This document shows, in pieces, positions 18,585 through 63,824 of a DNA stretch of 64,000 nt (its first letter is position 1; each line of letters begins with the position of its first letter). The notes below the pieces were generated by a model, which was not told where the DNA came from, did no database searches, and saw only the letters and a program-made list of their open reading frames with translations. The stretch is taken from sequence record ON286972. The stretch is one strand, 5' to 3'. Both the position numbers and the translations under genes were made by a program. The DNA comes from Escherichia phage A4.

Positions 18585-19133
18585 ATGGACAGCATTGTAA
18601 ATATTATTGAATGCATGATTTATATTTTTAAAAACAGTCCTGATAATGAGACTGTTAATTTTGAGTTAGGTGAATTAAATATCAACCCAAAAGAATCTCC
18701 ATCAGTATATTCTAATATTACATTGTTCATTAGTGGTTTAGGTTATGTCGTAAAGATCATTAATGCAACACAACGTAGACAAGAATACAAGATGGAAATT
18801 CTACGCGGAGATAGTGAAATTCGTCTATATAATGTATCACGCTACACTAAGATACTGGTAAAACATTCTTATGAAGATGACGAGAAGTTAGCTGTAGCTA
18901 AAATTGATTCAAACACTTTCAAAGAACAAATGTTCATGGCTGCTATGTCATATGATCAATTAACTTATAATAAGCTAGAAATGGGTTATAAATTACTTAG
19001 GTTATTAGAAGATCATTATGAAATTACAATTATGGACAAATTGCTTACCAAAAGCCAAGAGGAACTAGAGAAAATGCATTTGTTATTAAAAAAATATATT
19101 GATGATAATTTAAATTATGGAGAAGTACGTTGA
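18585..19133 (+). CDS. hypothetical protein, FQxS-like (degenerate motif)
   Basis: Motif position reads [13 protein letters not shown]. Confidence 0.5.
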
Positions 19134-20542
19134 AAAGTAATTTAGAAAATATACGCAAAAAAGCCGATAATTTAGTACTATGTTGTATAGGGGCTTTATT
19201 TGCTGTTACTTTAGTTTCCGGTGTTGTTCATGGTAGTTTTATTATTGCACTTATCGGTGCAGTTTTATTATTAGTAATGCTAACTCCTTTACTATTTGTT
19301 GAAAGTAATGCATTCACTCGAACGTTATTAAGTATAAATGTGATGTGCTGGAGTGCGTTACTAATACATCTTGGCTTAGGGATGGTGGAATGGCACTTTA
19401 CAGTTTTTGTCTTTTTAAGTTTATTGATTGTATGGCGTGACTGGCGTTGTGTATTAGCAGGTTCAGTACTGATAGCAATACATCATTTATTATTTGGATT
19501 GTTGCAGGGTGCTGGAATTCCAATATTATTCGTGTTTTCTTTTCACCATATTTCGTTATGGCACATTATAGAGCACGCAATATATGTAGTAGTACAGGCA
19601 ATAGTTCTGATGTACGTTGCGTACATTATGGAGAAAGATGCAAATGAAGCAGATGAAATTCAACGAATTGCAAGATCAGTGAATTCTGAAGACGGCAATA
19701 TTACTTTAGAAATACAAAATAATCATTTCAACTCCGAATTTGCACAGACTTTTAGTAAAACAATATCAGCTATGCGTGAGGCAATTGAACAAGTACAAAT
19801 TACAGTTCAGTCAATGAAAAGCAACTCCTATCATCTCGAAAGTAAAAGTAATGATTTAGCTTTCAGAACTGAAACACAAGGACAGGCACTCACTCAAATC
19901 GCTGCTGCTATGGAAGAATTAAGTGCTACATCTGCAAATACATCTGATAACTCCAATACTGCAAAAAGTATGGTTAAAACTACAAAAGAATCCAGTACTA
20001 ATGCAATTGAAAGTATTAATAATTGCAAAGAGCAGATGAATAGAATTAAGGAAGATTCTAATGCTATAGTTGCTATACTCAAAAATATAGAAACTATTGC
20101 TTTCCAGACTAATATTCTTTCTTTAAATGCAAGCATTGAGGCTGCTAAAGCGGGTGAACATGGACGTGGATTCTCTGTTGTTGCACAGGAAGTTCGTAAC
20201 TTAGCAATGAAATGTGATACATGTAGTAAAGAAATTAAAGAAATCGTTGATAACTCCGTAAAAAACAACAACCAAGGAATTGAACAAATCAACGAGACAG
20301 CAAGTGATATTGATTCTATTGTAAAAAATGTTGATTCTCTCTTGCAGTTCATTGATGATTTAGCTATAATGGCTGAACAACAAAGTATTGCAATCCTTCA
20401 GGTCACTGAGAGTGTTAATATGATGGACCGTTCAGTACAGCAAAATGCGGAGCATGTCAAGGACACAATGCTGATGGTAGACAATCAACAGTCTGAAGTA
20501 CATGCTTTACAAAAAGCCACTTCGATTTTTAACGTGAAATAA
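19130..20542 (+). CDS. methyl-accepting chemotaxis protein-like membrane sensor
   Basis: C-terminal [37 protein letters not shown] matches the MCP signalling-domain core; N-terminal ~170 aa has 6-7 hydrophobic helices with paired His; TTG start with GGAG RBS. Confidence 0.85.
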
Positions 20543-32242: not shown

Positions 32243-33082
32243 ATGAAATTAAATTTTATTATCAACTTTAATGTTAAAGAAACCGATCATTACGCATCAG
32301 AAGATGACCGTGTTGCACCAGCTTCGTCTGAATACATCAGAAATGAAAATGTCCATATGCATGAAAATTATTTCGACTTTGGTAATTTTATTATCTACCG
32401 TGGATTTAAGGATGTTGTATTCCGTTCCAGATATGAAGACTTTGAACATGCACTCATTGATGTACCGGATGAATTAGTATTCCAGTTCATGTTACTTGGT
32501 ATTAAAGATTATGACTTTATAGTTTATAACCATTATACTAAGCGTATTATGATTGGTAATGATTCATATGATCTTACTTATTATTCCAGTACTGATGAAG
32601 ATTTAGAAAATATTAAACGCCGTTCTGGTGGTATACGTAATTGTTCATCTTCAAACTCCAGTAGAATGAGTGAAAGGTTTTTTGATTTCAAAAATAGCAA
32701 TAATAACGACTGTGAAGACGCGGACAATACTGAACATGTAATGTTTGAAATTGACCACAATAATGGATATAATGACTTCCTTAACGTTCTGAAGCCTTAT
32801 ATCAATCATAAATTCGTCAAAGATGTAAATCTGGTGGCACGTGACTTACAGTACAGTGATCGTACTGGTGGTATGCCTGTACCAATGGATCGTGTATGTA
32901 CGAACAATACAGTATTCAATGTCCCACGAGAAGATGTTGCATTTGTATTTCTGGCATTTTTGAATTCAGATGCACTATGGGACGATAATGAAAGACAATT
33001 TAGTTCAAGACATATTGAAATAATTCGTCAAAATACATTACTACTGTGGAAGAAATTTACTGAAAATACCCAGGACAAATAA
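32243..33082 (+). CDS. hypothetical protein
   Basis: 279-aa ORF; weak FQxS-like stretch ELVFQFMLLG. Confidence 0.5.
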   Translation: MKLNFIINFNVKETDHYASEDDRVAPASSEYIRNENVHMHENYFDFGNFIIYRGFKDVVFRSRYEDFEHALIDVPDELVFQFMLLGIKDYDFIVYNHYTKRIMIGNDSYDLTYYSSTDEDLENIKRRSGGIRNCSSSNSSRMSERFFDFKNSNNNDCEDADNTEHVMFEIDHNNGYNDFLNVLKPYINHKFVKDVNLVARDLQYSDRTGGMPVPMDRVCTNNTVFNVPREDVAFVFLAFLNSDALWDDNERQFSSRHIEIIRQNTLLLWKKFTENTQDK

Positions 33083-33103
33083 ATTCTTGGTGATATAATG
33101 ATG

Positions 33104-33137
33104 AGTGGCAATATATCTTTGTCACTCTTTTTTTTTT
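33104..33137 (+). terminator. rho-independent terminator
   Basis: Hairpin AGTGGCAA..TTGTCACT (one G-U) followed by T10. Confidence 0.55.
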
Positions 33138-33139
33138 AA

Positions 33140-33776
33140 TCCTGAAAGGTTCCATATGGAAATGATTAAGAGCCTAATCCACTCGAAAATGTAGAGGGTA
33201 GATGAGTAGTCCTTTCAGTACGAACAGCAGATGAAACCCGTCAGATGTGGGCATATTATGAACCCCTCACGGCAATGCGGCTGTATAAAGAACTCCGATA
33301 AGCACACAGAGAGTTCCTAGATAGACATATAAGGATCGCACCTTACCAGATTTGCTAAGGGAGATTTCATTAGAAATTGCGGTCAACTATTTGTACAAGA
33401 TAGTTGCGTCCAAAATTTGGTGAAATCAAATACCAGTACTGTTCATATGGTACTCGTATTATGTGTCGGGATGTTTAAGACCGACGACCGTTGCTACAAG
33501 AACCGCGATAGAGAGAAACAGAGCAACCCGCTTTCGCCTCGTTAAGAGAATTCGTGATATGAAATATGTGAAGACCACCAGCGTCAAATTTTAATTCTTT
33601 CCCCCAGTGGGGGGATGAAATATGCTCTTCCAAACCTCGTCAATATTAATTAAAACCATTTAGTACTATTAGAATTATTCAGAGCGTAGCGATGAATTAA
33701 TTCTACTGATGTTGATTGAGTGCTAACGAAATCAATATCGAGTACATTATTTGATGTTTCCTAAAAAGGAATAATA
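33140..33776. ncRNA. ORF-free, GC-enriched region with multiple stem-loops (candidate structured RNA or element remnant)
   Basis: No ORF of 60 aa or more on either strand across ~640 bp; hairpins such as CCCCC-agt-GGGGG and GTCGG..CCGAC; no tRNA T-loop consensus found. Confidence 0.25.
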
Positions 33777-34319
33777 ATGCCTGTATTTTCAAAGAACAAA
33801 ACAACAGAGATCATTTATAAATCAAAAGAATTTGAAGTACTAGAAGAATTTGATAGAGATTCATTTGATGGATATAAAATAGTAAAAGAAAAAGGAACTA
33901 TCAATCATATTGTTGAGTACATGGGAGGTGTAGAACTAGCAAAAATCACTTGTAGACCTACAAAAAACCCAGTAATTTTTTCTGTTCGCTATGGACATTA
34001 CGGAGAAGAGCGATATAATTCTAATACAGTATCAAGGAAATTCCATGTTGTAGATGGGAAATTAGAAGGGGAATCCAGACAATATAGTGTTCTTGGACTT
34101 CCTTTGTCAGTGAAGTACTTCCATCAAGGACATGATGTTACTATTGAAATTATGGATTTTATTGGGTTCAATGGTACAGTAGATGACTTCAACTTCTATG
34201 TATTAGCAGAAGATGAAGCATTCAATATAATGATGAAGTACGGTTCTAGATTTAAATTTTTATATGAGTACAACCTGGACAGTAAACTGTTCGATAATAT
34301 CTTACAGAACTGTCTATAA
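33777..34319 (+). CDS. hypothetical protein
   Basis: ORF-track ORF after the ORF-free region. Confidence 0.5.
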   Translation: MPVFSKNKTTEIIYKSKEFEVLEEFDRDSFDGYKIVKEKGTINHIVEYMGGVELAKITCRPTKNPVIFSVRYGHYGEERYNSNTVSRKFHVVDGKLEGESRQYSVLGLPLSVKYFHQGHDVTIEIMDFIGFNGTVDDFNFYVLAEDEAFNIMMKYGSRFKFLYEYNLDSKLFDNILQNCL

Positions 34320-34333
34320 TTAAAGGAAAATCA

Positions 34334-34948
34334 GTGATATATAATTTTGGTATTAATGACATTCCTGGCGACTCCATACCATCAAGTTTGGATTATCATA
34401 TATATGATAAATGGACTGGAATAATTAGGCGTTGCTATAGTCTTAAAAGAACTGATAAGAATTTATCATACATAAACACAACAGTTTGTGATGAATGGAA
34501 ATATTATTCCAATTTCAAAAAATGGTTTAAACTTCACTATATTGAGGGATATCAATTAGATAAAGATATAATTGGGGGAGATAAAGATATTTACTCACCT
34601 GAAACGTGTGCCTTTATACCTGGTTTAATTAACAGTTGTATAATTGACGGAAATAGAGGTAATAATTATATTGGTGTGTCGTATTTCAATGATGATAGGT
34701 GTTCCAAAAAATATAGACCTGCAATATGTAAATTTGGAAAACAAATACGAAACTTTGGGTTATTTCACACACCTGAAGAAGCTCATCAAGTATGGCAAAG
34801 GGAGAAAATAAAATATCTATATGAAATCATAGAAAAATACAGTTCTGTTGTCGATTTAAGAGTTATTAATGGAATAAAGCGTAGAATAGATATTTTACAA
34901 TATGATTTAGATAATGGTTTGATAACAGAAACAATAAGTAAAATTTAA
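34334..34948 (+). CDS. homing-endonuclease-associated DNA-binding protein (intact paralog)
   Basis: Motifs W..IIRRCYS, VCDEW, LDKDI..YSPETCAF typical of a phage family usually annotated as HNH/AP2 homing endonuclease; GTG start. Confidence 0.5.
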   Translation: MIYNFGINDIPGDSIPSSLDYHIYDKWTGIIRRCYSLKRTDKNLSYINTTVCDEWKYYSNFKKWFKLHYIEGYQLDKDIIGGDKDIYSPETCAFIPGLINSCIIDGNRGNNYIGVSYFNDDRCSKKYRPAICKFGKQIRNFGLFHTPEEAHQVWQREKIKYLYEIIEKYSSVVDLRVINGIKRRIDILQYDLDNGLITETISKI

Positions 34949-34964
34949 TAATGGAGAAAGTATT

Positions 34965-35486
34965 ATGTCGAAGAAGGATGCTTCGAAAAAACATTCGGTA
35001 CACTTCAGTACTGGAAAAGATAACTGGACTACTCCAAAGGAATTCTTTGAAGATTTGGATGAAGTCTGGGGATTCACACTTGATGCAGCATGTGTTAAAG
35101 AAACTGCATTATGTGACAAGTTTTTTACACCGGAAGATGATAGTCTTTCACAGGATTGGGGAAACAATATCGTCTTTCTTAACCCACCATACAGCGACCT
35201 GAAACCTTGGCTATCTAAGGCAGTTGATGCTTATAATAATGGTGCAACAGTACTGATACTTGTTCCATCACGTACTGATACAATTGCATTTCAGGAATAT
35301 GCATCTAAGCTTTGTGACTGTATTTGTTTTATTAAAGGACGTTTAAAATTTGGCATCCCTGAAGAACCAGATAAAAAGACTGATAGTGCTCCATTCCCTA
35401 GCTGTTTAATAGTACTGGATAAGTACTTAACACCAGCTAAAATCAACTATCTTAAATCTCTCGGTCAGGTGATGAAGAATATATGA
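34965..35486 (+). CDS. DNA N6-adenine methyltransferase (phage Dam-type)
   Basis: Catalytic NPPY motif plus N-terminal FSTGKDNWTTPKEFF signature. Confidence 0.7.
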   Translation: MSKKDASKKHSVHFSTGKDNWTTPKEFFEDLDEVWGFTLDAACVKETALCDKFFTPEDDSLSQDWGNNIVFLNPPYSDLKPWLSKAVDAYNNGATVLILVPSRTDTIAFQEYASKLCDCICFIKGRLKFGIPEEPDKKTDSAPFPSCLIVLDKYLTPAKINYLKSLGQVMKNI

Positions 35487-36022
35487 AAGACACTTGTATA
35501 GTAACGTATGGACGTATAAATCCAGTGCATTTGGGACATGGGTTAATTTTTGATAAAGCCGTATCGATGAAAGAACAATACAATGCTGACTTGAAAATAT
35601 ACCTTAGTACTACACAAGATTGTATTAAGAATCCATTACCACCTGAATTGAAAATGTATTACACTGAGGGTTTCTATCCAAGAATTCAACACAACATCAG
35701 TACTGAAGATAATCTTTTTGATATTATGCAGGAATTGAATGGTAAGTACAGTGATGTTCTTTTCATATGTGGTTCAGACAGGATAGAAAACTTTCAAAAT
35801 GTACTTGACAGATACAATGGAAACTTGTATAATTTTCGTAATATAAAAGCAATCCAAGCTGGTATAGACCGAACCGTTAGCAAGTACAGTTCAACTGAAA
35901 TGCGTTCTTTTGCTAAGCGTGATGATTTTGAAAGCTTCAGTTCTTATCTACCAGGTGATGATAATGACTTGAAAATAAAACTTTTTAAAGATGTAATAAA
36001 ATACATGAGGAAAGAACCATGA
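35483..36022 (+). CDS. NMN adenylyltransferase-like nucleotidyltransferase (NadM type)
   Basis: GRINPVHLGH (HxGH) and SKYSSTEMR (ISSTxxR-like) nucleotidyltransferase motifs. Confidence 0.65.
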   Translation: MKDTCIVTYGRINPVHLGHGLIFDKAVSMKEQYNADLKIYLSTTQDCIKNPLPPELKMYYTEGFYPRIQHNISTEDNLFDIMQELNGKYSDVLFICGSDRIENFQNVLDRYNGNLYNFRNIKAIQAGIDRTVSKYSSTEMRSFAKRDDFESFSSYLPGDDNDLKIKLFKDVIKYMRKEP

Positions 36023-36312
36023 CAGTACTCTTCAAAACTAACCCAGTACTATGGGAACAAAATGAAAGTTCAGGATATCGTAATATCCAAGTAGAATACA
36101 AAGGTAACACTATTGTATCGGTTGTTGCGAACAAAACCCTAGGTGAATGGACATGTCAAGTGGTTCCAATGGGTTATTCATATCGTCTGGATGAAGTTGA
36201 ATTTCTCGCTAATCTTTATTCACAAATGCAGTTCATTATGAACTTCCTTTGTACTGATACTGAACTTACACACGATGATGTAATCAACTTACTGGACAAT
36301 TTACATGTCTGA
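36019..36312 (+). CDS. hypothetical protein
   Basis: ORF-track ORF, ATGA overlap. Confidence 0.45.
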   Translation: MTVLFKTNPVLWEQNESSGYRNIQVEYKGNTIVSVVANKTLGEWTCQVVPMGYSYRLDEVEFLANLYSQMQFIMNFLCTDTELTHDDVINLLDNLHV

Positions 36313-36595
36313 AATAAATGATATCACTTCTATCATATTGGATGAGTGTATTTTAGGATCATACGAAACATTTTCAGTACTAGACGGTATAGAACTATGG
36401 CACATTAAATGCCGTGGTATCAATGGCTTCAGTACTGAATGCAAAAAACTCTTGACTTCGTACAGTACAGAAGGTAAACTGTGTACAGTGAGGTCATCAC
36501 CGAGTCTTTCATATACTGGATATATAATTTATCTTGGAAGTGATCATTTATTCTATCTCACCAAGGAGAACTATTTTGACAAATACAAACAGTAA
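36305..36595 (+). CDS. hypothetical protein
   Basis: ORF-track ORF. Confidence 0.45.
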   Translation: MSEINDITSIILDECILGSYETFSVLDGIELWHIKCRGINGFSTECKKLLTSYSTEGKLCTVRSSPSLSYTGYIIYLGSDHLFYLTKENYFDKYKQ

Positions 36596-37193
36596 TACTT
36601 ATTTTCGTTATCTACGCCTTGGGCTATCCCTTCGTCCAATTCGAGGTAAATGTGATTCTCTTGCTGATTTAGATTATGCATATTCCATTTATGATGATGG
36701 TGTACAGTATGTTCTGGGTGACTTCGGTGAGTTTGAAGAAACCAATGACAGTACTGGTATTATGGACGGCATTGAGAATCTAGATTGCATCGTAAACAGT
36801 TCAAGACATGATGTAATCAAAGAAATTCATAAATTTATTGAAACTAACACAGCAAAAACTACATGGTGTTTAGTAGGTACAGATCCACAAATGGCAATTG
36901 CTTTTGGTAATGAAGATGGATATGTAGCACAACTTATCATGGATTTTGCATCTAAAGAGAAATTTGAAGAATTCAAAGCAAAGATGGTTCAATCACTTCT
37001 TCAGATGGGTATCCCTGAAGATAAGATGCCAGAGATTCAAGATATTGAAGAATTTGTCTTAATTCCTTCAGATGAAAAATATGACGTATTATTCAGTACT
37101 CTGAACATTCCAGGTGTTATCGTTGAAAGCTTTGATGACGATGATGGTGAAATCTACATCGAACTGGATGATGATGACGACGACGATGAATAA
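36534..37193 (+). CDS. hypothetical acidic protein; start uncertain
   Basis: C-terminal poly-Asp/Glu tail DDDDGEIYIELDDDDDDDE; overlaps upstream gene. Confidence 0.45.
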   Translation: MEVIIYSISPRRTILTNTNSNTYFRYLRLGLSLRPIRGKCDSLADLDYAYSIYDDGVQYVLGDFGEFEETNDSTGIMDGIENLDCIVNSSRHDVIKEIHKFIETNTAKTTWCLVGTDPQMAIAFGNEDGYVAQLIMDFASKEKFEEFKAKMVQSLLQMGIPEDKMPEIQDIEEFVLIPSDEKYDVLFSTLNIPGVIVESFDDDDGEIYIELDDDDDDDE

Positions 37194-37198
37194 TAATT

Positions 37199-37226
37199 AT
37201 GCCCGACTTTGTTCGGGCATCTTTTT
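37199..37226 (+). terminator. rho-independent terminator
   Basis: Perfect 8-bp stem ATGCCCGA-ctttgt-TCGGGCAT followed by CTTTTT. Confidence 0.7.
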
Positions 37227-37238
37227 AAGGAAAAGTAA

Positions 37239-37511
37239 ATGGATTATCGAGTACTGAATAGAACATATAAAGCTTTATACAAAACATATATTGAAAGTAA
37301 AGTACATAATCCTATCATTTATAAAAATCCAGTTTATATTATATGGAATGAATATTTTACAATGATTCAAAATTACTTTTACGCTAACGAAATCTTTATA
37401 GATGGTGAAATGCGTAAGCTAACACGCGTTGATAGTATAGGTGGTGAAATTGTGTTATTCTATACTGATTCTATTATTGGACAACAATCTATAAATTTAG
37501 AGATATTATAA
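37239..37511 (+). CDS. hypothetical small protein, YIGK-motif paralog family
   Basis: ~90-aa paralog; MDYRVLNRTYKALY. Confidence 0.5.
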   Translation: MDYRVLNRTYKALYKTYIESKVHNPIIYKNPVYIIWNEYFTMIQNYFYANEIFIDGEMRKLTRVDSIGGEIVLFYTDSIIGQQSINLEIL

Positions 37512-37777
37512 TGAATTATAAGGATTTACATTTCACCTATAAACTAACATTTTATATGTATCGTTACGCTGATAACAACTTCATGGATAATGCATTTTAT
37601 CATCGTTTGTGGAGTGATTATATAAATTCTTTACGTGAACATTTTATAGGTACTATAATTCAATACGAAGGTAAAACAGTAAAAATATTTCAAGTTGATA
37701 GTTACAACGGGGATCTATGCTTCAAGGGTAGAGATTCTAGTGATGGATTACATGAGATTTATATCTATGAATTATAA
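37511..37777 (+). CDS. hypothetical small protein, YIGK-motif paralog family
   Basis: MNYKDLHFTYKL..EHFIGTIIQYEGKTVKIFQVDS. Confidence 0.55.
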   Translation: MNYKDLHFTYKLTFYMYRYADNNFMDNAFYHRLWSDYINSLREHFIGTIIQYEGKTVKIFQVDSYNGDLCFKGRDSSDGLHEIYIYEL

Positions 37778-38042
37778 GGATTTACAATTCACGTACAAAA
37801 TTCTTCATGAACAATATGAACGTGGTGAAGGAATATTAACTTACGATGAACGAGATTTTTTTCTTACATTGTGGTGTGAATATTTGGCAATGATTAACGA
37901 GATTTTTGTTGATAAAGAATATATGATTGACGACATGACTGTACGTATTATCAGAATTAAAAGTTATAATGGAAGTCTTGTTGGAATTTACTATAACAAT
38001 GAAAAGGCGAAAAGCGGATTTGTTGATTTGGAGTACCTATGA
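37767..38042 (+). CDS. hypothetical small protein, YIGK-motif paralog family
   Basis: MNYKDLQFTYKIL; start adjusted to ATG 37767. Confidence 0.5.
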   Translation: MNYKDLQFTYKILHEQYERGEGILTYDERDFFLTLWCEYLAMINEIFVDKEYMIDDMTVRIIRIKSYNGSLVGIYYNNEKAKSGFVDLEYL

Positions 38043-38302
38043 ACTATAATGATTTACAATTCACGTATCAACTTTTATATGATGATATGAATAACGAACT
38101 AGGTTTCTATTATGAAGCACATAATAAAATATGGTCAAATTATCTATCTGAGATACAACATCATTTTATAGGACTTCCAATACGTAGAAATAATAAAAAC
38201 TATCGTTGTACTGATGTAGTAAGTCATAGAGGTAGGTTGCGTTTAGAATTCTACCGCAGAGACGGGGACTTCATTGGTATAAATTTACTGGATTTTAAAT
38301 GA
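38039..38302 (+). CDS. hypothetical small protein, YIGK-motif paralog family
   Basis: MNYNDLQFTYQLL..HHFIGLPI. Confidence 0.55.
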   Translation: MNYNDLQFTYQLLYDDMNNELGFYYEAHNKIWSNYLSEIQHHFIGLPIRRNNKNYRCTDVVSHRGRLRLEFYRRDGDFIGINLLDFK

Positions 38303-38586
38303 TGAAAAACAACTTAAAGGAAATACAAGTATTTTATAGATTCTTATACTTGTCATATGTAACAGATGAGTACTATGAAAGTGTATATTATTTTTTATGG
38401 CAACATTACCGTACTATAGTAAGAGATTTATATATAGGAAAATCTATCATATCCAATGGTGAAAAATGTACCTGTACTGATGTCGTTAGTTTTAATGGTT
38501 CTTTAACACTGTGTTTCATATGCGATAATAATAGTGGGTCATTTTCATTAAACGTATATCAGTTAGAAGGAATAAATTTTGAATAA
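38299..38586 (+). CDS. hypothetical small protein, YIGK-motif paralog family
   Basis: ..DLYIGKSIISNGEKCTCTDVVS. Confidence 0.55.
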   Translation: MMKNNLKEIQVFYRFLYLSYVTDEYYESVYYFLWQHYRTIVRDLYIGKSIISNGEKCTCTDVVSFNGSLTLCFICDNNSGSFSLNVYQLEGINFE

Positions 38587-42445: not shown

Positions 42446-42709
42446 ATGAATATCCAAGATAGATTGCAATTGTTGCACACACTTGAAGAAGCTGCTTTTG
42501 AACTTGTTAATAAAATTGCACAAGAACTCCCAAAAGGAACCAACGTTCGTGTTCGTGAAATGGATTATTTAACGGGAGAAATTGAAGAAAAAGTTCTAAC
42601 AGTGATCAAAGTAACATACTATGAATCAGAGTTATCAATTCAATGTAAGTCAGATAATGGTTACGTTTCCTACTATGGCACAGATGTAGATATAGAGGTA
42701 ATTAGATGA
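42446..42709 (+). CDS. hypothetical protein
   Basis: ATG 42446 just after upstream stop; 87 aa. Confidence 0.45.
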   Translation: MNIQDRLQLLHTLEEAAFELVNKIAQELPKGTNVRVREMDYLTGEIEEKVLTVIKVTYYESELSIQCKSDNGYVSYYGTDVDIEVIR

Positions 42710-43851
42710 GTAATTTACGAGAAATATACAATGATTTAATGGAACTATGTGAATCTAATGATGCATTTTTCTATATAGATCACACAAGCCCTGGTGGTGG
42801 TTTATACCGTGTATTCACCTATCGTCTGGCATCTTATACCGATTTCACAAATAAAAATGCACTAGAAACTCGTGGTTCTATGTGGGAAATCGATTCCAAC
42901 GGAATTATGATTCGTTGTGCAGCACGTACAATGAAAAAGTTCTTCAATGCATATGAAAACCCGTACACAATGTTCAGTACTGATACGACATGTGATGATA
43001 TTGCAGTTGTAATGCCTAAACTTGATGGTTCTATCATCAGCACATTCCGTGATAACGATGGTGAAATCCGTTGCAAATCACACACTTCGTTATCTTCTGA
43101 CCATGCTATTAACAGTACTCGACTTTTGAACGAGAACCAAAATCTCTATCAATACATTGATGAAGCAGACCGTTTGGGCTATACTGTGAATCTGGAATAC
43201 ACAAGCCCAGAGTATCGAATTGTGTTACCATATCAGGTGGAACAGTTATTTGTTCTTAACGTTCGTCATCGTATTAGTGGTGAGTTGTTATGCGGTAAAG
43301 CACTACGTGATAAGTTTCCATGCCTTTCACAGTACAGTACTAATATGACAGGTAATGACATTCATCATACATTCCCGATTATGCCTACATTTAAAGAGTC
43401 AATCGATAAAGTACGTTCTATGATTGACATTGAAGGTTTTGTGTGTATAATGAAAGATGGTACAATGTGCAAAATCAAAACTGACTGGTATTGCTCTTTG
43501 CATTTAACAAAAGATTCCATTCTTATTGATTCCCATTTATATGAAGCTGTACTGACTGGTGCAAGTGATGACTTAAAACAATTGTTCAGTACTGATACAT
43601 ATGCAATGGATAAGATATTAAGAATGGAACAATTGGTATTTTCGTGCTATAATGCTTTACAAGATGAGGTAGAAAGCTTCGTCCATGCATACAAGCACTT
43701 AGAGCGAAAGGAATTCGCTCAAAAGGTTCAGCAAGATTTACCTAATGTATTGAACCGACAAGGCTTGGCCTTTGCGTTGTACAATGGCAAAAGTGTCGAT
43801 TATAAAGAGACTTTACTAAAGTACTACAAAGATGTACTAAAGGATTTTTAG
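42706..43851 (+). CDS. rnlA: RNA ligase 1
   Basis: Collinear with T4 Rnl1 as recalled: N-terminal NDLMELCE, nucleotidyltransferase KxDG motif (KLDGS), EGFVCIMKDG..KIKTDWY, GASDDLK. Confidence 0.9.
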   Translation: MSNLREIYNDLMELCESNDAFFYIDHTSPGGGLYRVFTYRLASYTDFTNKNALETRGSMWEIDSNGIMIRCAARTMKKFFNAYENPYTMFSTDTTCDDIAVVMPKLDGSIISTFRDNDGEIRCKSHTSLSSDHAINSTRLLNENQNLYQYIDEADRLGYTVNLEYTSPEYRIVLPYQVEQLFVLNVRHRISGELLCGKALRDKFPCLSQYSTNMTGNDIHHTFPIMPTFKESIDKVRSMIDIEGFVCIMKDGTMCKIKTDWYCSLHLTKDSILIDSHLYEAVLTGASDDLKQLFSTDTYAMDKILRMEQLVFSCYNALQDEVESFVHAYKHLERKEFAQKVQQDLPNVLNRQGLAFALYNGKSVDYKETLLKYYKDVLKDF

Positions 43852-44924: not shown

Positions 44925-45857
44925 ATGCCAACTATTACACTAACAGTTGGATTGCCAGGATGTGGTAAAACCACGTGGGCAGTGCAAGAAATTAAAAAAG
45001 CAAAGTCCAAGACTATCAACATCAATCGTGATGATATTCGAGAGTCTATGGCTGGGTCACATGATGCTTATAAATTCACTGATGCGAACGAGAAGTACGT
45101 AACTAATCAACAGTTCAGTGCAGCAAACGCAGCAGCAGCGAATGGATGGAACATTATTGTGTCCGATACGAACCTGAAACAAGGTTTTCGTGATGAATGG
45201 AAACGTTGGGCTAAAGATAATGGCTACGACTACAAAGAAAAGAACTTCTACGAAGATTTTGTACCGAATGAAGACCGTGGTGCAGATGTTCATGAATTCT
45301 TTAAGATTAAGGAATTCGTGAAGCTCTGTAAGAAACGCAACCTTCTTCGTGTGCGTTCAGTACAAGATGAAATCATTGACACTATGGCAGATACGTACTA
45401 TTATAGTAAGGCGATGCACATTGGTTACTATGGTAATGCACGTGAAGCTGCTATCATTGTTGATATCGACGGTACTCTTGCTCATAAGTGGGGACGTAAC
45501 CCGTTTGATGAAAGTACTGTCCTTCAGGATACACCAGATGAAGAAGTAATTCTGTCTGTCATTGCTGAGGCTGTTTTCCATAAGCGTAAGGTAATCGTCA
45601 TGAGTGGGCGTACTGAAGGGTGTCGTGCTGATACTGAACAGTGGCTTAAGAATTGGGGCATTCCCTACGATGTATTGTTAATGCGAGCTATCGATGATAA
45701 ACGTCCTGATGATGTTGTCAAATTCGAGTTGTATATGAATAACGTTGTTAATCATTACGATGTTAAGAAAGTATTTGATGACAGGGCCGCCGTTGTATTC
45801 ATGTGGCGTAAGCTACTAGGCTTGAAAGTATTTCAGGTGGAACCTGGACTATTTTGA
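44925..45857 (+). CDS. pseT: polynucleotide 5'-kinase/3'-phosphatase
   Basis: Walker A GLPGCGKTTWA, INRDD kinase motif, phosphatase DxDGT motif (VDIDGTLA), C-terminal KVFQVEPGLF collinear with T4 Pnk as recalled. Confidence 0.9.
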   Translation: MPTITLTVGLPGCGKTTWAVQEIKKAKSKTININRDDIRESMAGSHDAYKFTDANEKYVTNQQFSAANAAAANGWNIIVSDTNLKQGFRDEWKRWAKDNGYDYKEKNFYEDFVPNEDRGADVHEFFKIKEFVKLCKKRNLLRVRSVQDEIIDTMADTYYYSKAMHIGYYGNAREAAIIVDIDGTLAHKWGRNPFDESTVLQDTPDEEVILSVIAEAVFHKRKVIVMSGRTEGCRADTEQWLKNWGIPYDVLLMRAIDDKRPDDVVKFELYMNNVVNHYDVKKVFDDRAAVVFMWRKLLGLKVFQVEPGLF

Positions 45858-53076: not shown

Positions 53077-54495
53077 ATGAGCATTTTAGCAATTCTGGAA
53101 CAAATCAAAAAGACTTCAAGTACACTTGGTAAGAAAGCAATCCTTGAAGAAAACAAAAACAATGAAACACTCAAAAAAGTACTGAAATATACGCTAGACC
53201 CTACTATCGTAAGTGGCTATAAGAAGCTACCAGACGCTGCTGACGTGTATCAACATATGACGTTAGATGAAGCTATTGATAAGCTAGAATGCATCTATAA
53301 GCGTGGTGTGACGGGTAATACAGGGCGTGATTTCATTGCTTCAGTACTAGGTGCTGTTCCTGAAGATGACCAGGAAGTTCTCCGTAAAATGCTCACGAAG
53401 AACCTTGATTGTGGTATTCAGGAAAAGAACTGTAATGATGTATTCGGTAAAGGCTTCATTAAAGATGAACCTTATATGCGTTGTTCATTGATTGACAAGA
53501 AAACTGCTAAGAACATCAACTTCAAAGATTATGGTTATGCCGTTGCTGAAGTTAAGATGGATGGTCAGTACTTGAACCACGTTGTTATCAATGCATCATT
53601 AACATCCACTTCCCGTAATGGTAAGATTTATGACTTCCTCGGTTGTCGTGATGCTGAAATGGCTGGTCTTGCTCATCATATCCAACGTACAGATGAACGT
53701 TTCAGTAGTGGTGTAGTCTTTATGGGCGAGGGTTTAGTACTGGATACTGATGGGGAAACTATTCTTCCACGTACAACTGGTAACGGCATCATTCAGAAAG
53801 CTGGTAAGGATACTATCACCCAAAACGAAGCAATGCGTACTGTATTTGTACTATGGGATGTAGTGCCATACGATGCATATTGTGATGGTATCTGGGATGT
53901 AAAACGTAAGGAACGACGCGAGATTCTCGAAGGTGCAATCAATGCATTAGGTAGTGAATTCGTGCGTATGGTTGGATATCGTAAGGTGAAGGATCTCAAA
54001 GAAGCCTTTGCTTACAACTCTGAACTCATGAGTTCCGGTGAAGAAGGTTCAGTACTGAAATGTGAAGATGGTATCTGGAAATCTCATACTTCTCCTAAGC
54101 AGTTGAAAATGAAATTGAAAATGCAACTGGACTTGCGTATTGTTGGTTTCAATGAAGGTGAAGGTAAGCGTAAAGGTATGCTTGGTTCTTTACAACTGGA
54201 AAGTGCTTGTGGTACACTAAAAGTAAGCGTAGGAACAGGCATTAAAGAGAAAGATGCTGAATGGACATTTAAAACCATTTGGGAAAGAATGCAAGAACTC
54301 ATTGGTAAAGTTGTTACAATTGAGTGCAATGACGTAGTATATGATAAGCGTACTGGTGAACCGTCACTATTCTTACCAGTGTTTATTGAATTTAGATTTG
54401 ACAAAAACACTTGTGACGATTATACTCGTATCTTAGAAATTCGCGATAGTGCAGTTGAGGTCTTCTCAAACAGTATTATTGAATCACTTGGCTAA
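53077..54495 (+). CDS. 30: ATP-dependent DNA ligase
   Basis: N-terminal ILEQIKKTSSTLGKKAILEENKNNETLKKV resembles T4 gp30 as recalled; adenylation KxDG motif (KMDGQ); C-terminal LFLPVFIEFRFDK. Confidence 0.9.
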   Translation: MSILAILEQIKKTSSTLGKKAILEENKNNETLKKVLKYTLDPTIVSGYKKLPDAADVYQHMTLDEAIDKLECIYKRGVTGNTGRDFIASVLGAVPEDDQEVLRKMLTKNLDCGIQEKNCNDVFGKGFIKDEPYMRCSLIDKKTAKNINFKDYGYAVAEVKMDGQYLNHVVINASLTSTSRNGKIYDFLGCRDAEMAGLAHHIQRTDERFSSGVVFMGEGLVLDTDGETILPRTTGNGIIQKAGKDTITQNEAMRTVFVLWDVVPYDAYCDGIWDVKRKERREILEGAINALGSEFVRMVGYRKVKDLKEAFAYNSELMSSGEEGSVLKCEDGIWKSHTSPKQLKMKLKMQLDLRIVGFNEGEGKRKGMLGSLQLESACGTLKVSVGTGIKEKDAEWTFKTIWERMQELIGKVVTIECNDVVYDKRTGEPSLFLPVFIEFRFDKNTCDDYTRILEIRDSAVEVFSNSIIESLG

Positions 54496-63218: not shown

Positions 63219-63824
63219 ATGAAACGAATCTTGAAAGAGATTGTACAAACCGTTGTTTTAATCGCTGCATTAAACTTTCCGGCAGCGGCAGAAGTTTCAA
63301 AAAAATCATCAGTTTTTCTATTAAATGAACATGTTGTGTCAATTGATGGTGAACTAAATGATGAAACTGTACAAGAAGTGAAGAAGTTGTGGAAAGAAAC
63401 AAGATTTAAAATTTTAACAATTACATCACCTGGTGGAGATTTTGATGCAGGATTAGATTTGGGATTGTTTGTGGCTGCTAAAAAGTTAACTGTTTATGTC
63501 CCAAAGCAATGTAATTCGTCTTGTAGTCTGGTTTTTTTCTCTGCATCATCTGAACGTAGGGATATGAGTGATACCGCAGTGATGGGTTTACATAACATCT
63601 CACTAGTATCTACGAATGGTGCAGATCCAGATACGACATTCGTTTCAGTTAGACAGTTGATGGAGTTTACACATCAAGTCTCAACTAAAGTTGGGTATCT
63701 TTTTACACTGTACGCACATAACGGTATCCCCGCTGAAACACTCATTGATATCAGTACTAAACATGGTGAGGATATCGTTGTCTTACGAAGAACAGATCTA
63801 GTTAAATGGGGAATTATTCAATAA
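63219..63824 (+). CDS. secreted ClpP/SppA-fold serine-peptidase-like protein
   Basis: Signal-peptide-like N-terminus (..VVLIAALNFPAAAEV); core ILTITSPGGDFDAGLDLGLF..CNSSCSLVFFSAS resembles the ClpP/S49 fold. Confidence 0.55.
   Translation: MKRILKEIVQTVVLIAALNFPAAAEVSKKSSVFLLNEHVVSIDGELNDETVQEVKKLWKETRFKILTITSPGGDFDAGLDLGLFVAAKKLTVYVPKQCNSSCSLVFFSASSERRDMSDTAVMGLHNISLVSTNGADPDTTFVSVRQLMEFTHQVSTKVGYLFTLYAHNGIPAETLIDISTKHGEDIVVLRRTDLVKWGIIQ

Follow-up and report, generated by a model that had tools for sequence, protein, structure and literature searches.

The locus analyzed here raises a question that is easy to put: does a small nucleotidyltransferase (NTase) gene, located directly behind a Dam-type adenine methyltransferase (MTase) gene in a jumbo phage, encode a nicotinamide mononucleotide (NMN) adenylyltransferase (NMNAT) of the NadM type, as was claimed in the original prediction made from the nucleotide sequence? 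The stretch of DNA in question (hereafter the window; 64,000 nt of Escherichia phage A4, sequence record ON286972) is jumbo myovirus DNA akin to that of Escherichia phage 121Q/PBECO4 (Asteriusvirus), to which it is 78–84% identical at the nucleotide level over the alignable parts; its overall G+C content is 33.7%, and nearly every gene lies on the + strand. The genes of immediate concern are the following:

34965..35486, + strand: phage Dam-family (PF05869) N6-adenine DNA methyltransferase, 173 aa (Pfam, PHROG 111, PADLOC)
35483..36022, + strand: stand-alone HIGH-superfamily NTase of the phage “cytitidyltransferase” family, 179 aa (PHROG 3041/395, motifs)
36019..36312, + strand: 97-aa protein of PHROG 14956 (1.4e-41), co-conserved with the MTase–NTase pair

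Both of the open reading frames (ORFs) originally described do exist as claimed, with the quoted motifs in place, and neither is a chance one, as indicated by the matches to PF05869 (E = 3.6e-32), PHROG 111 (1.9e-56) and PHROG 3041 (5.5e-54), as well as by annotated orthologues in 121Q; indeed, dozens of 121Q-like genomes already have annotated orthologues of both. The reading favored here, to which we would assign a probability of roughly 0.6, is that of an inherited, co-transcribed pair consisting of an orphan Dam MTase and a HIGH-superfamily NTase, the acceptor of the latter being left open and the two being neighbors, not partners. As the acceptor is left open, the likelihoods given to the rival explanations below partly overlap with this one. 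The NTase, however, is distinct from the NMNATs (NadM or NadR) on which the phage NAD+ pathways described so far depend.

The part of the prediction that stood is the superfamily assignment, for which both the motifs and the fold speak, while the NadM type gained no support from the curated NMNAT models, none of which was passed. GRINPVHLGH (residues 10–19) and SKYSSTEMR (residues 133–141) harbor the HIGH-superfamily motifs H16-L-G-H19 and S136-S-T-E-M-R141, and an AlphaFold (AF2) model built from a deeper alignment (pLDDT 96, pTM 0.90) shows a Rossmann-like HUP fold, the top fold matches of which are NMNAT, phosphopantetheine adenylyltransferase (PPAT) and nicotinate mononucleotide adenylyltransferase (NaMNAT), followed by FAD synthetase, TmcAL and class I aminoacyl-tRNA synthetases. 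In an alignment of 34 diverse family members, H19, N50, R100, N112, S136 and R141 are invariant, the first His of HxGH is often T or S, like in PPAT, and the family signature reads FGRxNP(P/V)(H/T/S)xGH ... KNPL ... GSDR ... YNG ... SxTxxR ... F..LP. The window NTase is a direct member, with the same motifs, of the phage “cytitidyltransferase” family (121Q gp418, CBB_73, GAP32, cyanophage P-SSM4), also matching PHROG 395 (9.9e-26), which is, just as PHROG 3041, named “cytidyltransferase”. It has the same length as the other bare-domain members, whereas many of the remaining ones are larger (HTVC008M gp130, 596 aa; P-SSM2, 424 aa; metagenomic ones, up to 1,224 aa) and comprise further domains (DUF5824, DUF6267, Zeta-type kinase) not found in the window NTase.

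This family is a very widespread one, spanning 3,366 representative clusters in an exhaustive profile search (E ≤ 1e-3). A tblastn search with the NTase returned 561 phage records, mostly annotated as cyti(ti)dyltransferase, 460 of which are Synechococcus, Prochlorococcus or “Cyanophage” records, and nearly all T4-like cyanophages of the collection possess a member; the remaining carriers comprise pelagiphage HTVC008M, Methylophilales phages, PA5oct-like phages and the Rak2-like jumbo phages examined, and a protein on a contig labelled E. coli is 99% identical to the window NTase. Database labels conflict with each other (cyti(ti)dyltransferase, ribonucleotide reductase A, PPAT, NaMNAT, NMNAT and NadR-like), and our literature searches found no biochemical test of any family member, nor did those on “cytitidyltransferase”, DUF6267 and DUF5824 find anything. 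The NMNAT idea, nevertheless, is already in print as speculation, a cyanophage study having stated that “cytidyltransferase is a homolog of NMNAT” (PMC10665884).

When compared with NMNATs on the one hand and CoaD or TagD on the other, the NTase appears to group with neither, being at about equal distance from PPAT and the NMNATs. It fails the threshold of Pfam PF01467 (CTP_transf_like; 14.6 bits vs. 21, E = 0.039), a profile matched at E ≤ 0.1 by 31 of the 34 family members (best 4.2e-9); the match to FAD_syn (Pfam) is likewise sub-threshold (0.015), and that to the NadD model TIGR00482 (NCBIfam) reaches 20.2 bits vs. a cut-off of 112.45 and covers residues 74–106 only. There was no match to a curated NadM or NadR model, and the CoaD family is absent among the NCBIfam and Pfam matches at E ≤ 1. 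Searching the PDB chains with the single sequence, or with a narrow 12-sequence profile, gave nothing useful, and the 34-sequence family profile was needed to reach them. With that profile, the best match among PDB sequences was H. pylori PPAT (1.5e-5, full length), followed by the TmcAL-like MJ0951 (1.3e-4) and the MJ0541 NMNAT (1.3e-3), the latter matching at the N-terminus only (the first ~50 residues of the NTase). Comparisons using hhalign yielded E = 4.3e-6 over 135 columns for PPAT, 2.4e-6 over 51 columns for MJ0541 (with a sequence verified against PDB 1f9a) and 1.3e-5 over 160 columns for the NadM-Nudix protein of Pectobacterium phage CBB, whereas in Foldseek searches of the PDB with the model PPAT made up most of the top 50 matches (TM 0.61–0.66), with NadD chains interleaved. 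As the comparisons to PPAT and to NMNATs score alike, the NTase family appears to form its own branch within the HIGH superfamily, roughly as remote from PPAT/CoaD as it is from the NadM/NadD NMNATs.

The differences on either side are considerable. From NadM-type NMNATs (MJ0541, PDB 1f9a; Francisella NadM-Nudix, 2qjt; phage NatV/CBB_113), to which it is only 13–19% identical, the NTase differs in being a 179-aa single domain with neither a Nudix fusion nor a NAMPT partner, and its family has an invariant GSDR / YNG / R130 signature of its own. From CoaD/PPAT (H. pylori 3otw, E. coli 1b6t; 11–17% identity in structural alignments) it differs in having GSDR in place of the RGLR motif and an added C-terminal helix. 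That the NTase might be a PPAT-like enzyme of CoA synthesis, or else a sugar- or glycerol-phosphate cytidylyltransferase serving surface or DNA-sugar modification, would agree with PPAT being the best full-length PDB profile match, with its hhalign score and its share of the Foldseek list, and with the PPAT label on some of the database records; we consider it quite improbable. In any case, this locus shows that motif-level calls (HxGH plus ISSTxxR) cannot separate NMNATs from PPAT-like enzymes.

What the genomic context adds is best seen in the relatives. The Dam–NTase–97-aa trio is kept in four jumbo phages/genera, with protein identities to the window (in this order) of 92%, 76% and 69% for 121Q (Dam gp417, NTase gp418), 66%, 58% and 48% for K64-1, 44%, 35% and 38% for Serratia phage BF, and 41%, 42% and 39% for CBB (Dam CBB_72, NTase CBB_73). 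CBB, in addition, encodes a canonical bifunctional NadM-Nudix NMNAT (CBB_113) and a NAMPT (CBB_115) ~21 kb downstream of CBB_72/73, so that a member of the NTase family and a true NadM-Nudix occur together in the same phage. These two genes come after a collinear block of DNA ligase, metallophosphoesterase, ClpP, dCMP deaminase and Big_2 genes, and the window holds the same block; after its Big_2 gene, however, the last ORF of the window (63219..63824) encodes a protein homologous to the gp473 protease of 121Q (43% identity, E = 5e-60). In 121Q, the same gp473 protease follows Big_2, and then come adjacent Sir2-like and Nudix hydrolase genes, gp476–gp477 (L015:17176-18476), CBB and GAP32 having NadM-Nudix and NAMPT upstream where 121Q keeps only the Sir2-like and Nudix genes. 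By synteny, the gp476–gp477 site would lie a few kb past the right end of the window.

Searching with the CBB NAMPT, NadM and AAA_28 proteins (tblastn) gave no match in the window or in 121Q at 186–240 kb, and 121Q-type phages are absent among the 40 best NAMPT matches, where all the other Rak2-like genera are present, with orthologues at 56–96% identity in Mimasvirus, Eneladusvirus, Alcyoneusvirus, EJP2, fENko-Kae01, and Salmonella, Erwinia, Yersinia and Xanthomonas members. A Pfam scan of the 125 non-overlapping window ORFs of at least 70 aa (a scan with only 19 families at E ≤ 1e-4) found no NAPRTase, NUDIX, PRPP synthetase or PnuC, in agreement with the earlier remark that no NAMPT or Nudix partner is visible in the window. 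Because a gp473-type protease stands at the syntenic site, the 121Q/window lineage appears, judging from these gene orders, to have lost the NAMPT/NadM module or to have had it replaced. As CBB has both the module and the NTase and 121Q has only the latter, the NTase is kept with or without the NAMPT/NadM module, and the NAD module known from phages must therefore be something other than this gene.

A comparison was also made with the phage NAD+ pathways NARP2 (NAMPT plus NadM-Nudix) and NARP3 (PnuC plus a NadR-like protein), which rely on a HIGH-superfamily adenylyltransferase domain (PMC13464706, PMC9503650). It is this domain that they have in common with the window NTase, whereas the window contains no NAMPT or PnuC gene (NAMPT being absent from the 121Q syntenic site as well), and the fused Nudix or nicotinamide riboside (NR) kinase domain that makes up the phage NadM/NadR architecture (PMC9503650) is not present in the NTase. 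Where NARP2-type genes occur in related phages, they are located at another site and include a different NMNAT. Furthermore, NadV/NAMPT has been reported in every NadM-containing phage, a pattern that the window does not show.

It could still be argued that the NTase is a stand-alone NMN adenylyltransferase, remaking NAD+ from host-derived NMN and thereby aiding the phage under NAD+ depletion, the NMN coming, for instance, from release by NAD-dependent ligase or from NR. Although plausible, this seems rather unlikely to us and finds no backing in the gene context: besides the failure to pass any curated NMNAT model and PPAT performing as well or better in the profile and Foldseek comparisons, there are no NAMPT, Nudix, PnuC or NR-kinase genes in the window and no NAMPT/NadM at the 121Q syntenic site, the relatives with canonical NadM-Nudix and NAMPT keep the NTase, which would be redundant there, and no assayed member of the family emerged from the literature searches.

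The other gene of the pair poses fewer difficulties, and the call of a Dam-type MTase with an NPPY motif and the family N-terminus has been borne out. The Pfam match (111.8 bits vs. a gathering threshold of 28.1) covers profile positions 7–154 of 169, the catalytic (D/N)PPY motif is present as NPPY (aa 73–76), and the N-terminal family motif WTTP...FTLDAAC occupies aa 21–43 (WTTP at 21–24, FTLDAAC at 37–43); NPPY, W-x-TP and F-T-(L/V)-D are kept in the orthologues of 121Q, K64-1, BF and CBB, down to 41% identity. PADLOC assigns the protein to its “orphan methyltransferase” class (2.3e-35), and this was the only defence-related match in a PADLOC scan of the NTase and its neighbors. The sequence search turned up no MTase relative with a solved structure. 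By its sequence, 34965..35486 is thus classified as an ordinary phage orphan Dam-family N6-adenine methyltransferase, resembling the HP1/T1/VT-2-type phage Dam MTases (PF05869; TIGR01712) in the full-length Pfam match, in NPPY, in its small size with no separate target-recognition domain, and in belonging to the orphan class (no cognate nuclease), but differing from them in that it scores below the equivalog cut-off of TIGR01712 (phage_N6A_met; 90.2 bits vs. 97.05). Characterized phage Dam members of this type target GATC; as the window MTase falls below that cut-off, GATC specificity is not to be assumed. GATC itself is rarer in the window than expected (119 observed vs. 197–232 expected). 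As a separate observation, GTAC is much commoner than expected (540 observed vs. 351 expected under a second-order model).

How, then, should the adjacency of the two genes be understood? The MTase and NTase ORFs share 4 nt (ATGA), the NTase stop overlaps the next ORF (start at 36019) by means of ATGA as well, and both belong to a tightly packed gene series whose 5' part includes an HNH-family gene:

33777..37193, + strand: putative transcription unit of seven tightly packed ORFs, including the MTase and NTase genes (ORF list, terminator scan)
34334..34948, + strand: HNH-endonuclease-family protein, 204 aa, directly 5' of the MTase gene (PHROG 953, 1.3e-64)

Terminator-like hairpins at 33103–33127 and 37199–37220, found by the terminator scan, flank this series and, together with the ORF packing, suggest a single transcription unit. 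The HNH-family protein had no match in the Pfam scan and no BLASTP similarity to its positional counterparts in 121Q, K64-1, BF and CBB; because unrelated genes fill the same slot in these four phages, it is probably, as far as such comparisons tell, a mobile insertion or replacement of the homing-endonuclease type beside the MTase gene. A restriction-modification-like link between the two was considered and rejected, as the HNH gene is not kept there in relatives.

A functional coupling of the MTase and the NTase, whether within one DNA modification pathway or in the manner of a toxin and its antidote, might be read into the ATGA overlaps, which are seen in the window, 121Q and K64-1, and into an adjacency that is conserved in four genera and persists at 35–45% protein identity in BF and CBB. 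The gene order, however, is broadly collinear across these phages, and the adjacency therefore says little about coupling; outside the clade, the NTase gene never adjoins a methylase gene in the cyanophage, pelagiphage and marine T4-like loci examined, and there is no known mechanism joining an N6-adenine methylase to a HIGH-superfamily NTase. Coupling is thus regarded as highly improbable, and we infer conserved synteny, not a demonstrated functional link.

Under the favored reading of neighbors inherited together, the Dam–NTase pair and the 97-aa gene would have been passed on vertically and co-transcribed in the Rak2/121Q-like jumbo phages. The orphan Dam MTase would most likely methylate the phage DNA and so blunt host restriction. 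The NTase, as an enzyme of the alpha/beta-phosphodiesterase type and by analogy with every characterized member of the superfamily, would bind a nucleoside triphosphate (probably ATP) via (H/T)xGH and SxTxxR and move the nucleoside monophosphate onto the phosphate of a small acceptor, with pyrophosphate being released; NMN would be one candidate for such an acceptor, with the NTase acting independently of NAMPT.

A different kind of acceptor is brought to mind by members of the family outside the jumbo-phage clade. There, the NTase gene of cyanophages, pelagiphages and T4-like contigs from marine metagenomes is located in the replication region, after UvsX and a gp41-type helicase, and the proteins tend to be long: 87 of the 150 best NTase representatives have at least 500 aa, with the NTase domain mostly near the N-terminus. 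Among the long proteins scanned, DUF5824 was found in 17 of 64 and a Zeta_toxin/AAA_33 P-loop kinase in 4 of 64, and two PHROGs are fusions as well, PHROG 455 being DUF6267 plus NTase and PHROG 3041 an NTase ending in DUF5824. The neighborhoods examined are these:

L005:6673-11304, L007:4375-10593 and L009:5810-14580: NTase plus DUF6267 neighborhoods on marine T4-like contigs

All three of these contigs have the order DUF6267, NTase, 600–850-aa protein, and one of them (L009/L010) adds, further downstream, a 906-aa Zeta-type kinase and a DUF5824 protein. The pairing of a HIGH adenylyltransferase with a kinase recurs in cofactor synthesis (NadR, CoA synthase, HldE, PAPS synthase), and the kinase pairing seen here would fit, by that analogy, a small-molecule acceptor for the NTase.

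It may be, following such a logic of kinase plus adenylyltransferase pairs, that the acceptor used by the NTase is a non-pyridine one and that the enzyme belongs to an as yet undescribed phage pathway together with DUF6267, the Zeta-toxin/AAA_33-type kinase and DUF5824, possibly delivered with the virion, since cytidylyltransferases have been repeatedly detected in cyanophage virion proteomes (PMC10665884). For the locus studied here we find this unlikely: the window contains no DUF6267 or DUF5824 homologue, its sole AAA_33-type kinase domain is that of the polynucleotide kinase/phosphatase (PNKP), the jumbo-phage NTase is a bare domain, and the main text of the phAPEC6 virion proteomics report makes no mention of the NTase. 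Nor did DUF6267 gain support as a covalent nucleotidyltransferase/ligase, an idea arising from KWDG, EGYVAI and KLVD motifs picked out by eye; the profile tests (phmmer and a 4-sequence profile vs. the PDB, and hhalign vs. the window DNA ligase and Rnl1) spoke for none of it. The recurrent fusions with DUF6267, DUF5824 and the Zeta-type kinase are, in any event, a concrete start for experiments.

Something that may merit more attention than the MTase–NTase pair itself is situated 1.3 kb upstream of it. The gap of ~650 bp preceding the 33777..37193 operon holds, at about 33128..33650, a region whose G+C content (41–43%) is above that of the window and whose nucleotides are conserved across genera with flanking proteins sharing only 35–45% identity. 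Matches to it were obtained in 61 phage records, exclusively from Rak2-like jumbo phages, with 4–5 places per genome, and a 22-base degenerate pattern of its core picks out 52 loci in IMG/VR, 3–5 per ~350-kb genome, on one strand within a genome and ~60–85 kb apart. RNAalifold, when applied to 12 copies, gave 63 pairs, 31 of which have compensatory changes; 95.5% of the cells are paired vs. 84.0 ± 0.8 in shuffles, none of 500 shuffles attained the observed covariation, and a slid-register control gave 0.06–0.10 vs. 0.417 observed. With 44 unique copies, there are 66 pairs, 97.9% canonical and 43 with compensatory changes, and the frequent G-U pairs point to the + strand as the RNA strand. A conserved TGnTATAAT, a hairpin and a T-run (33080..33137) precede the RNA on the + strand; there was no Rfam match, and no tRNA or tmRNA was found at 33128..33650. 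It looks like a candidate for an undescribed, multi-copy family of ~500-nt structured RNAs with strong covariation.

Four more features of the window deserve a mention:

35805..35833, + strand: perfect sigma-70 consensus TTGACA-17-TATAAT inside the NTase ORF, one of three in the window
37239..38586, + strand: tandem array of five paralogous ~88–95-aa ORFs with an N-terminal MNY(K/N)DLxFTY-like motif (ORF list)
19130..20542, + strand: 470-aa protein with a methyl-accepting chemotaxis signalling domain (PF00015, E = 4.2e-37), unusual in a phage
42706..43851, 44925..45857 and 53077..54495, + strand: T4-type RNA repair (Rnl1-like RNA ligase, PNKP) and ATP-dependent DNA ligase

The sigma-70 consensus is intact in 121Q and K64-1 as well. 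It is accounted for by the codons of the conserved LDxYNGxLYNF motif and was not counted as a sign of promoter activity; it may merely reflect selection on the protein, or it may drive transcription of the genes that follow from within the ORF. The tandem array begins directly past the terminator that ends the MTase/NTase unit. The RNA-repair and DNA-ligase genes are collinear with those of 121Q and CBB, and the T4-type RNA repair set probably counters PrrC-type anticodon nucleases, by analogy with what has been proposed for phAPEC6.

Coming back to what the bare NTase could mean for phage biology at large, a tentative thought, and a possibility at most, is that it represents the catalytic heart of a phage pathway, undescribed so far but very widespread, by which a nucleotide-linked molecule is made or repaired. 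If the product were NAD+, the NTase family would be a new, NAMPT-independent class of stand-alone phage NMNATs; alternatively, it could be some other metabolite that is adenylylated, and virion delivery is conceivable. Depleting NAD+ is one of the major defences against phages, and the known counter-pathways, NARP1–3, all have recognizable partner genes; an NMNAT working without NAMPT, if that is what the NTase truly is, would be a fourth such route, and an extremely common one, and would give a function to a near-core gene of the cyanophages.

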